A program made the position numbers and the translations under genes. A DNA stretch of 13,918 nucleotides from a virus (taxonomy: Duplodnaviria; Heunggongvirae; Uroviricota; Caudoviricetes), in IMG/VR virus record IMGVR_UViG_2695420480_000007. One strand, 5' to 3'. Positions 4,080 to 5,186 of the stretch are shown in pieces. The notes under the pieces are model-generated. The model was given only the letters and a program-made list of their open reading frames with translations, searched no databases and was not told where the DNA came from. Each line of letters starts with the position of its first letter. The first letter of the stretch is position 1.

Positions 4080-4165
4080 GGCTGGACATCATTCAATATT
4101 CGCACTATTGGAAGTTCACCAGCCAGCCACAGCACGTTCTTGCATACAACGTGCCTGCGGTTTTT
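4080..4165 (+). repeat. Copy 2 of the paralogous element of about 80 nt
   Basis: 85% ungapped identity to 1411..1490. Flanking stem GGCTGG (4080..4085) / CCAGCC (4119..4124) corresponds to GATGG/CCATC in copy 1, which is one compensatory A-T to C-G change. Confidence 0.5.
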
Positions 4166-4351
4166 GAGACCGGTCCGATCATCAAACGAAACATAAAATT
4201 AGCTCACACTATGAGGAAAAGTATCTTTTTTTACTATGTAAATTCAAAGGATTAGCCTCATTTACCCGATAGTTTTCTCAACACTACTGGTTGTGAGCCC
4301 TTGCAATGTTCATTAATATACGTCTCACAAATAATTCATAGATATTGCAAA

Positions 4352-5125
4352 ATGGATATTACTGAGTTTCCTTCTGGAGTAATTGAACACCTTGGCTGGT
4401 ATGTATACCGATTGATTGATCCGAGGGACGGAAGCACCTTCTATGTAGGGAAAGGCAAAGGTAACCGCGTATTTGCCCATATGCGCGGTGAAGTGGCAGC
4501 GACTGATGATGACGAGTTACTGAGCAACAAGCTAAAGCAAATTAGAGAAATAAGGTTAGCAGGACTTGAGGTTATCCATGTCATCCATCGACACGGAATG
4601 ACTGATGAAAAGACGGCGTACGAAGTTGAAGCAGCACTTATTGATGCCTACCCTGGGTTAACGAATATCATGAATGGTGCTGGCAGCAATGAATTCGGCG
4701 CCGCGCATGTCAAAGAGTTGATAGCAACATATCAACCCGAAACCATAACATTTCATCATAAAGCATTAATGATTTCCGTTAACAGAAGTGCAAAGGATTC
4801 AGAGCTTTATGATGCGGTTCGATTTAGCTGGCGCATTAATGTCTCTCGCGCCAGCCAAGCAGAAGTCATTCTTGCTACTGTAAGGGGGATCGTTCGAGGG
4901 GTTTTCATTGCTGATAAATGGCTCAAATCAACACGTGAAAATTTCCCTACGATGAAATACTGGGACGAGGATCCGGACTTTGAGGCAACACAAAGTTCTC
5001 GCTATGGTTTTGAAGGTCGAGAAGCCCCACCTGAAATAGCAAATCTTTATCTTGGAAAAAAAATACCAGATGAATTAAGAAAAAAAGGAGCTATGTCCCC
5101 GGTCCGTTACTCACCTGATTTTTGA
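4352..5125 (+). CDS. GIY-YIG nuclease-family protein (N-terminal GIY-YIG-like domain plus C-terminal domain of unknown function)
   Basis: Track ORF 4301..5125 begins at TTG; first in-frame ATG is 4352 (MDITEF...). Motif [30 protein letters not shown] resembles GIY…YIG with conserved Arg; candidate catalytic Glu in [10 protein letters not shown]-rich. The 3' 290 bp (4836..5125) is duplicated in inverted orientation at 8336..8625. Confidence 0.6.
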
Positions 5126-5147
5126 GTCTTTAAGTGATAAGCATAAA

Positions 5148-5186
5148 CCGCAGCACGATCTTCTTGCATACGACGTGCTACGGTTT
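5148..5186 (+). repeat. Copy 3 (shortened) of the paralogous element, between the GIY-YIG stop and the invertase stop
   Basis: ccgcagcacgatcttcttgcatacgacgtgctacggttt aligns with the core of copies 1 and 2. It contains a potential 6-bp stem AGCACG/CGTGCT. A mirrored copy lies at 8275..8313 inside the inverted duplication. Confidence 0.45.

Follow-up and report, generated by a model that had tools for sequence, protein, structure and literature searches.

This locus poses a concrete question: what is a sequence that appears three times, in the same orientation, in separate intergenic regions of one stretch of caudoviral DNA (13,918 nt in all, hereafter the window)? The preliminary description reported 85% ungapped identity between two copies at 1411-1490 and 4081-4160, and recomputation gives the same value (68/80). 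The homology itself spans 98 nt (1396-1493 versus 4066-4163; 80/98 or 82% identical) and its edges are abrupt on both sides, the flanking 10-mers of copies 1 and 2 showing chance identity. The short copy (copy 3) described at 5148-5186, with an exact mirror at 8275-8313, is also real; it comprises the 3' hairpin half alone (consensus positions 62-98), and the mirror, on the minus strand, lies in the second arm of a 986-nt perfect inverted repeat. A covariance model trained on the family, both full window copies included, gave 111.5 bits for copy 2 (4066..4165, plus strand), 108.3 bits for copy 1 (1396..1493, plus strand) and 25.7 bits (E 2.8e-4) for the short copy. Scanning the whole window with this model gave no further match under E 0.1.

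The element consists of a first hairpin, SL1, in which a short stem (4-6 bp) encloses a conserved 33-nt loop, and a second, GC-rich hairpin, SL2, usually followed by a T-run. SL2 has the pattern CCGCAGCACG - loop - CGTG(T)CTGCGG, and in most cases an A-tract precedes the hairpin and a T-tract follows it. In copy 2 the SL1 stem lies at 4080-4085/4119-4124 and SL2 at 4127-4160, followed by five T residues at 4161-4165. In copy 1 the corresponding parts are 1410-1415/1449-1454 and 1457-1490, SL2 being degenerate, with two mismatches and no T-run. Copy 3 is an SL2 hairpin (5148-5183, plus strand) followed by TTT.

Across the element family, pairing is kept in 92.9% of cells, and double changes occur at 7 pairs compared with 1.2 in shuffled alignments, a number that none of 500 shuffles reached; SL2 has five double-change pairs and is 95% paired. 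As judged from these alignments, covariation argues strongly for SL2 and weakly for SL1 in the predicted two-hairpin structure. The stem change that had been singled out as compensatory is genuine: the helix reads GGCTGG/CCAGCC in copy 2 and (A)GATGG/CCATC(C) in copy 1. Across the family, however, the variable pair is C-G in 30 sequences, U-G in 4 and A-U in 2, with mismatches in a further 3, which means that uncompensated intermediates do occur. A sample of loci anchored on SL1 alone contained 70 distinct SL2 hairpins (median 13 pairs, median -16.9 kcal/mol), with at least four T residues within 8 nt after SL2 in 47 of 87 cases. Both family samples were picked by sequence patterns, which inflates the conservation of the anchored part; an apparently conserved SL2 loop (UUGCAUAC) proved to be an artefact of selecting loci by the SL2 pattern, as the loop varies freely in the SL1-anchored sample. 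SL1 is accompanied by SL2 in 85 of 86 variants, while SL2 also occurs alone. The conserved loop of SL1 is not explained by a plain terminator.

The preliminary description asked whether the element is widespread and structurally conserved, and both hold: it is near-universal in E. coli, and SL2 pairing is kept by compensatory changes. Relatives were found in 5385 of 5426 complete E. coli genomes, at 14,851 places (median 2 per genome, maximum 9), nearly all of them unannotated, as well as in 191 phage records, including lambda and HK97, and in Qin of K-12. Apparent occurrence in many phyla of GTDB was rejected as contamination, the matches being lambda-identical, low-coverage or on contigs of ~48 kb. 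The core sequence, read in either direction, was not found in the literature searched.

In phages the element closes a leftward int/attP/dinI-like unit and abuts the 3' end of a convergent late gene (tfa, stf, pin or cdtC); in those inspected it always forms the final ~100 nt before that 3' end. HK106 and HK97 have the order int, attP, (sib), element and convergent tfa, and mEp460 has dinI, element and convergent stf. In mEpX2 the element follows int and attP(thrW), with the tail-fibre stop 18 nt away, and in cdtI it follows dinI, with the cdtC stop 15 nt away. In lambda the order is ea31, element, ea47, and a hairpin-only copy lies between the ea47 and tfa stops. Same-orientation pairs of copies bracket ea47 of lambda and also a methyltransferase-like gene (O157-type and Shigella-type loci).

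This placement is consistent with transcription termination. A GC-rich hairpin followed by a U-tract, as in Rho-independent terminators, is present in copy 2 (T5) and in copy 3, which has T-rich tails on both strands, and family-wide the hairpins mostly have T-rich tails. Copy 2 folds at -33.0 kcal/mol (z -2.81), and copy 3 folds well on either strand (plus, -19.8 kcal/mol, z -3.4; minus, -25.8 kcal/mol, z -4.5). Copy 1 folds no better than its shuffles (-13.9 kcal/mol, z +0.47) and has no T-run; its degenerate hairpin cannot be a working terminator. Term-seq of MG1655 recorded orphan RNA 3' ends at 1632571(+) and 1632574(+), both in LB at OD 0.4 and in LB at OD 2.0, with modest counts of ~2-3 thousand versus 2.8 million for MgrR in the same table (PMC7815308). 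These ends lie 6 and 9 nt past SL2 of the Qin copy, the one homologue for which RNA 3' ends were found just past the hairpin. SL2 is not followed by a T-run in the full lambda copy or in several other contexts, and the minus strand of full-length copies lacks a U-tract; termination must therefore depend on context. Polymerase modified by N or Q would read past an ordinary intrinsic terminator. A simple terminator scan was uninformative because its 8-nt loop limit passes over SL2, and a simple promoter scan gave promoter-like sites at chance level.

Taken together, the repeat is probably a shared, often bidirectional terminator and 3'-UTR module of the leftward unit, at which homologous recombination may stack accessory cassettes. 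It would represent the conserved 3'-terminal module of the "leftward" (int/attP/dinI-like/b-region) unit of lambdoid and e14-like prophages. SL2 would be a Rho-independent terminator abutting the 3' ends of the convergent late genes (tfa, stf, pin, toxin cargo), halting transcription from one or both sides so that neither unit reads into the other, and SL1 would be a structured 3'-UTR domain. Of the candidates put forward earlier, a repeated regulatory site survives in this narrower form, the hairpin being best read as a terminator common to converging units. Homologous recombination between copies may, in addition, swap and stack cassettes, as suggested by the many different accessory genes that share these ~100 nt, or the ~35-nt hairpin by itself, as their 3' terminus. 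The case for such recombination is the reassortment of flanks: 16 left and 28 right flank classes were distinguished in the sample, and 7 of the 16 and 12 of the 28, respectively, had more than one partner class.

The window illustrates how such stacking could look. The tmRNA-like 3' end noted for copy 1 is real: the 28 nt at 1486-1513 are those that end E. coli ssrA, and 1514-~1670 is DNA natively found downstream of ssrA, identical to the ssrA end and downstream sequence of CFT073. Because copy 1 abuts this 28-nt core and its native flank (~170 nt), it sits at a fossil attR(ssrA) (1486..1670, plus strand), which retains the terminator of the native downstream DNA at 1640-1669. Relatives of 1486..1670 occur in 3978 genomes and lie under or adjoining ssrA in several among the matches listed. 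The core is an att core and not a gene: the tmRNA model (RF00023) gave 16.3 bits versus a gathering threshold of 47, aligning only at model positions 347-363 with the body unmatched, and ARAGORN found no tmRNA in the window. The combination of a phage junction, a target-identical core and a native flank is peculiar to copy 1; copies 2 and 3 have no att core. The suggestion that the copies are att-arm remnants is thus borne out for copy 1 and fails for copies 2 and 3, which lie away from att sites. A further ~105 nt upstream of copy 1 (1290-1395) is also homologous to the ea31-ea47 spacer of lambda.

Between copies 1 and 2 lies a cargo module (1679..3661, both strands; capH/capP-like by PADLOC) whose Pfam assignments are a BRO-N protein (1679-2440, minus strand), an HTH regulator (2747-3124, plus strand) and an ImmA/IrrE peptidase (3128-3661, plus strand), and strains A22 and L1PEag1 carry the same genes. 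The 3' remnant of a dinI-like gene (3974..4058, plus strand) follows, its stop codon 7 nt before copy 2; with the element, it matches the 3' portion of the dinI-like gene of CFT073 and the element there at 91-93% identity, and an intact dinI-like gene occupies the equivalent position in CFT073, mEp460, cdtI and L135. The cargo between copies 2 and 3 is a LEM-3-like GIY-YIG protein (4301..5125, plus strand; Pfam LEM-3_GIY-YIG, E 2.4e-14), a homologue of the defence system PD-T4-3 (PADLOC, E 2.7e-140 across the full profile). Copy 3 starts 23 nt past the stop of this gene and, on the other strand, 2 nt past the stop of a converging Pin-type DNA invertase (5186..5776, minus strand; Pfam Resolvase and HTH_7), homologues of which carry the annotation pinE in relatives. 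Its right flank is 98% identical to loci in which a full element directly abuts pin, that is, to sites that are empty with respect to the GIY-YIG insertion.

From this arrangement the window copies are inferred to be the ends of three stacked cargo modules. The first would be the phage side of an old ssrA attR, the second a dinI-like remnant with its 3' module, and the third the PD-T4-3 defence gene, with its hairpin beside pin. Whether the copies mark the ends of mobile modules had been proposed as a check: they do bracket accessory and defence cassettes, and their recombinational stacking is deduced from flank reassortment rather than observed.

A more ambitious version of this explanation holds that SL1 and SL2 form a functional sRNA or cis-acting RNA domain in which the 33-nt SL1 loop is active, and also a preferred recombination portal for defence cassettes such as PD-T4-3. 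The RNA would derive from the 3' terminus of the leftward operon in nearly every E. coli lambdoid prophage, and cassettes would be swapped and stacked at the tail-fibre end of these prophages. This is possible, although the odds are clearly against it. Much the same standing is given to the proposal that the element encodes a putative trans-acting sRNA of ~85-100 nt, which would arise when the upstream transcript is terminated at SL2 and processed (3'-UTR-derived), with the SL1 loop as seed or protein-binding site and the copies as sibling sRNA genes. The layout is the usual one for such sRNAs, in which conserved single-stranded sequence precedes a terminator hairpin with a U-tail, and SL1 is almost never found apart from SL2. 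The K-12 orphan RNA 3' end at the element has no co-oriented gene upstream, in several phages the element lies 7 nt past a dinI-like stop, and E. coli prophage regions are known sources of Hfq-bound sRNAs (PMC8550237). However, no conserved promoter lies upstream, the left flanks falling into 16 unrelated classes, and the RIL-seq entries found are only whole intergenic regions with low sRNA scores. The complement of the SL1 loop is no better than random anywhere in lambda: the best non-self RNAduplex pairing of the lambda loop with either lambda strand (-33.8 kcal/mol) falls within the range of 20 shuffled loops (-29.8 to -38.6). The element belongs to no Rfam family, a search with E up to 1-10 giving none on the sense strand. 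PasB was considered, since the Pas paper places it near IS009/tfa, and was rejected: it is located at 1466261-1466343 of NC_011601, and its probe, AATCCCGCAGTGATCGCGGAGCT, is missing from the element. A trans-acting sRNA is accordingly a tentative and rather unlikely reading. The earlier candidate of a small structured RNA keeps its two-hairpin structure and its K-12 RNA 3' end.

Considerably less probable is a DNA recombination site, either an integrase-family attP arm or an attC-like cassette site for a site-specific recombinase. The SL1 loop contains two direct words, putative arm-type sites similar to those of lambda Int. Copy 1 and many relatives directly abut the ssrA core, at the place expected of a P arm. 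The element has very sharp edges, copies in the same orientation enclose single cargo genes, and the gene for the serine recombinase Pin often adjoins the hairpin. Nevertheless, a P arm should keep a fixed spacing to its core, and across the phages compared the distance from element to core is 0 nt, ~230-290 nt, 1.6 kb or ~3.5 kb, with cores that themselves vary (ssrA, thrW, lambda-type). In HK97 the phage's own lambda-like attP and sib are still present, ahead of the element. Two recombinases are encoded nearby, a serine invertase that has sites of its own and an integrase of the P22 type at thrW; Pin-type invertases use pix sites, which are found elsewhere in the window (5796-5821, 7655-7680 and 9478-9503). 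An integron attC array would have an adjacent IntI-type tyrosine recombinase with attI; there is no integron-type integrase near the element, a hairpin at each cassette end being the only feature that recalls an integron. Finally, the compensatory changes in SL2 indicate a constraint on single-stranded nucleic acid (RNA).

That the copies are fragments of a protein gene, either a 64-codon ORF over the lambda copy or a minus-strand PGAP "capsid protein" pseudogene, is highly improbable. The annotation of lambda imm434 does have a 64-aa ORF with an RBS over the element, PGAP places an incomplete minus-strand "capsid protein" there in at least one genome and the same label under the match in a second, and one frame of the plus strand stays open in 37 of the 39 variants. 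But stop codons interrupt the lambda frame in 9 of the 39, indels of 1 nt are frequent, variation is not concentrated at third positions (108/75/90 variable sites by phase, 39 variants), three translations that were tried had no NCBIfam match, and the right flank, which would encode the C-terminus, differs wholly between contexts. The preliminary argument against coding, from the scarcity of synonymous substitutions, therefore holds: of the 18 positions at which copies 1 and 2 differ, only 2-4 are synonymous changes, whichever frame is read, and with stops and indels no frame is conserved among the 39 variants. Remnants of a small mobile element (a MITE, an IS end or a REP-like sequence) can hardly be credited either, for although the unit is discrete, sharp-ended, hairpin-forming by virtue of its palindrome and present in many copies per genome, it has no terminal inverted repeats and no target-site-duplication candidate between its left and right flanks, is restricted to one prophage position instead of being scattered, and has been the target of IS1 and another IS inserted into or beside it rather than their product, so that the known IS or MITE terminus which the preliminary description had allowed for is not what the copies are.

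The original observation of a repeated, structured, noncoding element is confirmed, but the finding is a fairly ordinary one. What goes beyond it is the near-universality of the element in E. coli prophages, the identification of the short copy as the terminator alone, and the delimitation of accessory and defence cassettes by the copies. The element is almost always unannotated in the genomes that carry it, yet it accounts for an "orphan" RNA 3' end in K-12 and for the terminator of the Shigella sRNA CssrB. It also provides a precise landmark for the hotspot of accessory and defence genes that, in lambdoid and e14-like prophages, separates the att site from the tail-fibre genes. This landmark can delimit cargo cassettes and reveal new ones, as conserved flanks do at P2/P4 hotspots. 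If SL1 were a functional RNA, it would be among the most widespread prophage-borne RNAs in E. coli.

Several known systems resemble this element in part. CssrB (RF02799) ends in a hairpin, CCGCAGCACGUCUUAAGCAAGAACGUGCUGCG, that is the reverse complement of an SL2 variant, and in E. coli ECMA0423 a full CssrB (230 bits) adjoins a hairpin-only copy in a layout of dinI, element, cargo and hairpin. CssrB is transcribed from the opposite strand, however; its 145-nt body is unrelated and missing from the window, and SL1 is no part of it. The 180-nt CssrB model reached only 24.5 bits in the window, at 5149-5208(-) and 8253-8312(+), versus a gathering threshold of 76 and 230 bits for true members, and only the terminal hairpin aligns. 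CssrB has been seen by Northern blotting in S. flexneri, its 3' end being predicted and not mapped (PMC3071730).

Bidirectional intrinsic terminators share the GC hairpin between an A-tract and a T-tract, here 2-23 nt from converging stops and with a mapped RNA 3' end in K-12. They differ in that the element adds a conserved upstream domain of ~60 nt, the same sequence stands behind many unrelated genes, and some copies have no U-tract on one or both strands. The sib/tI region of lambda is comparable in that the element also lies on the int transcript, 230-380 nt beyond int/attP in HK97-, HK106- and mEpX2-type phages, with a hairpin and terminator; the sequences are unrelated, HK97 has a sib hairpin with the element immediately after it, and in lambda the two are 3.3 kb apart. 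The 3'-UTR-derived Hfq sRNAs and the Pas, AgvB and AsxR prophage sRNAs are likewise lambdoid-prophage, intergenic and terminator-ended, but the element is not PasB and matches no Rfam sRNA family. Comparative papers on HK97/HK022 and on HK620 reportedly describe conserved "linker" or "boundary" sequences at the module junctions of lambdoid phages. The element resembles these as a short conserved junction sequence of exchangeable modules with reassorting flanks, and is distinguished from them as a structured RNA/terminator unit with covariation that recurs in tandem around single cargo genes.

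Alignment of the repeated element, which belongs to lambdoid prophages, gave the consensus GTAAAATCGGTAACGGCTGGAAATCATTCAATACTCGCACTATCGAAAGTTCACCAGCCAGCCGCAGCACGTTCTTGCATACGACGTGTCTGCGGTTT, with sharp ends at GTAAAATC on one side and CTGCGG(TTT) on the other. Its 5' stem-loop (SL1) consists of the stem GGCTGG/CCAGCC enclosing a 33-nt loop, and its 3' hairpin (SL2) is formed by CCGCAGCACG / CGTG(T)CTGCGG, usually with a T-run next; SL2 can stand alone, and SL1 without SL2 was almost never seen. Among 39 distinct element sequences, pairing was kept in 92.9% of cells compared to only 26-53% in slid controls, and double (compensatory) changes affected 7 pairs versus 1.2 in column shuffles, with none of 500 shuffles as high. 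SL2 was 95% paired with five covarying pairs and SL1 88.5% paired with two, its outermost pair often being open. The C-G to A-U stem change singled out in the preliminary description is among the covarying pairs, but uncompensated intermediates (GGCTGG with CCATCC) occur too. In a second sample of loci, chosen by an SL1 word alone, all of 70 different SL2 sequences fold (median 13 pairs, -16.9 kcal/mol), mostly with T-rich tails next, and it was therefore concluded that the SL2 hairpin is under selection and its sequence is not. A conserved SL2 loop seen in the first sample was rejected as an ascertainment artefact. By its kind, the element can be classed both as a terminator/3'-UTR module and as a sequence marking module boundaries.

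A genome search with 111 nt around copy 1 placed relatives of the element at 14,851 positions in 5385 of 5426 complete E. coli genomes (median 2 and maximum 9 per genome), mostly at 80-90% identity and almost all without an annotated feature. The element is also carried by 191 phage records, including lambda-type phages, HK97/HK106, mEp phages, cdtI and many Stx phages, while a species-level scan limited it to Escherichia and Shigella. Matches on tiny or ~48-kb low-coverage contigs of Chromatiales, Pseudomonas, Streptomyces, Enterococcus and other species representatives (loci L130, L132, L134, L136-L138, L140, L143, L148-L150, L152, L154, L157-L159, L161, L163, L164, L166, L167 and L169) were rejected as evidence for the element in other phyla; in those compared, the element, with the second hairpin copy if there, is exact lambda sequence, and the matches are lambda DNA contamination of public assemblies.

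In all annotated phages inspected, the element is the final feature of the leftward unit (int, attP, dinI-like gene, b-region), directly before the 3' end of a convergent gene. In lambda it lies at 24162-24256, between ea31 and ea47, and a hairpin-only copy at 22573-22606 (5651-5684 of L004, the lambda locus) adjoins the ea47 and tfa stop codons on either side, so that ea47 is bracketed by two SL2 copies. The order in HK106 and HK97 is int, attP, (sib hairpin), element, pin remnant and tfa. In mEp460 and cdtI, the dinI-like gene is followed after 7 nt by the element, on which the side tail fibre gene or cdtC converges; in mEpX2 the element follows int and attP(thrW), 18 nt off the tail-fibre stop, and in K-12 Qin and CFT073 it stands ahead of ynfT-ydfK-pin.

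The window comes from an E. coli chromosome, where it makes up the thrW/proA island, with proA (12665-13918, minus strand), tRNA-Thr(CGU) (12475-12550, minus strand) and a phage integrase (11297-12460), beyond which lie an e14-like tail-fibre inversion region with the pin invertase and then cargo genes. The repeats first recognized at 1411-1490 and 4081-4160 do match at 68 of 80 positions, and their true homology covers 98 nt (copy 1, 1396-1493; copy 2, 4066-4163; 82%), stopping abruptly at both ends. Copy 3 (5148-5186) corresponds to the 3' hairpin half only and is mirrored exactly at 8275-8313 because it lies inside a 986-nt perfect inverted repeat (4836-5821 / 7640-8625), which also contains the 3' part of a GIY-YIG gene and the entire pin invertase. 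The family covariance model found these four places and no others in the window; since the two full window copies were among the sequences used to build it, their scores are necessarily high. An 868-nt perfect direct repeat (6787-7654 / 8625-9492) doubles tfa together with the variable part of the tail fibre. The repeat junction at 8625 has 2-nt microhomology and no pix site, and close relatives have one pin only; the repeats reflect either a true inversion-duplication of the invertible segment or a misassembly that joined its two orientations. That segment is bounded by three pix/gix-like crossover sites (TTCTCCCAAACCAA...) at 5796-5821(-), 7655-7680(+) and 9478-9503(+), the third lying at the border with the constant tail-fibre part.

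Copy 1 forms the phage flank of a fossil attR. Its tmRNA-like 3' end, proposed in the preliminary description, proved genuine, with the last 28 nt of ssrA adjoining it. This core and ~170 nt of native ssrA-downstream DNA (together 1486-1670; terminator at 1640-1669) are located inside the thrW island and not at ssrA, and the stretch is chromosomal DNA of another locus, apparently brought along with a prophage end. In a related locus a P4-type integrase comes next after the same junction, an arrangement like that of tandem ssrA insertions. Homology to lambda continues for a further ~105 nt upstream of copy 1, whose SL2 has decayed (fold z +0.47). A 108-codon ORF (1359-1685, plus strand) that spans copy 1, the ssrA core and the terminator downstream of ssrA is almost certainly spurious.

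Copy 2, which comes after the final ~85 nt of a dinI-like gene, has an intact hairpin and T5. Copy 3, whose hairpin folds well on either strand, starts 2 nt past the pin stop and 23 nt past the GIY-YIG gene (4301-5125, plus strand; Pfam LEM-3-like), which matches the PADLOC model of PD-T4-3, a single-gene anti-phage system, over its full length (E 2.7e-140). In other loci, a full element stands directly against pin with the same right flank as copy 3, and compared with these the window looks like the product of an insertion of cargo gene plus hairpin. The remaining cargo comprises a BRO-N protein, an HTH and ImmA/IrrE pair (2747-3124 and 3128-3661, plus strand) resembling the defence-system regulators capH/capP (PADLOC), and a trypsin-like protease (1-1047, minus strand) similar to the protease domains in the models for RT-protease, Lamassu and Hachiman; the pair and the protease are possible further defence cargo.

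Term-seq of MG1655 identified 'orphan' 3' ends at 1632571(+) in LB at OD 0.4 and at 1632574(+) in LB at OD 2.0 (Adams et al., 2021; PMC7815308, supplementary file 1), and the printed contexts of both are the K-12 Qin copy of the element. With the register set by the thrL row, these ends lie 6 and 9 nt past the last G of SL2, in and just beyond the U-run; counts at the site are modest. A second orphan end at 1632744(+), ~170 nt downstream of the Qin copy (~3280 in L001, the Qin locus) and before ynfT/ydfK, probably belongs to the ydfK leader RNA that terminates prematurely and is reported to bind Hfq (PMC4152368; PMC5089854). A trans-acting, 3'-UTR-derived sRNA would fit the architecture of the element as well as the orphan nature of its K-12 3' end, but no promoter is conserved, evidence of a 5' end or of Hfq binding did not turn up, and a target search in lambda was negative; it is a possible but less probable reading.

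SL2 probably acts as a terminator, often in both directions, and would keep the leftward accessory/int unit insulated against the late tail-fibre/pin unit. Weak points of this reading are that the full lambda copy and some other copies are without a T-run, that full copies are without a U-tract on the minus strand, and that polymerase modified by N or Q should read through an ordinary terminator. Homologous recombination at the element, suggested by the same sequence ending many different cargo genes, may in addition exchange and stack cassettes. Cassette exchange is suggested by the reassortment of flanks (16 left and 28 right classes, the dinI-type left flank alone joining 15 right classes), by two same-orientation copies around single genes in lambda (ea47), O157-type loci, Shigella-type loci and the window, and by the cargo between the window copies, which looks defence-related.

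An att arm or cassette recombination site is an unlikely identity: the spacing between element and att core varies among phages (0 nt, ~230-290 nt, 1.6 kb or 3.5 kb), as does the core itself, and the recombinases next to the window copies are a serine invertase with its own pix sites and a P22-type integrase at thrW. A coding fragment is also unlikely. In the lambda annotation the element is covered by a 64-aa 'hypothetical protein' that has an RBS (24095-24286; L004 3971-4162); the frame of this ORF has stops in 9 of 39 variants and is not kept in other copies. The earlier argument against protein coding holds, as no frame is conserved; 1-nt indels are common among variants, variable sites of the element have no third-position excess, and NCBIfam gave no match for any of three element translations tried. 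Nor is a MITE or IS remnant likely, the unit having no terminal inverted repeats and its left and right flanks having shown no duplicated sequence.

As far as Rfam and the literature were searched, neither yielded an account of the 100-nt unit, of how nearly universal it is, of its constant position in lambdoid prophages or of its use as a cassette boundary. Known before were the K-12 3' end, published as an orphan, and the SL2 hairpin, which Rfam includes as the tail of CssrB. A Northern blot showed CssrB in S. flexneri 301; its 3' end was predicted, not mapped (PMC3071730). In E. coli ECMA0423, a full CssrB adjoins a hairpin-only copy, in the order dinI, element, tfa', methyltransferase-like gene, hairpin and CssrB. 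The terminal hairpin of CssrB is the SL2 hairpin read off the opposite strand.
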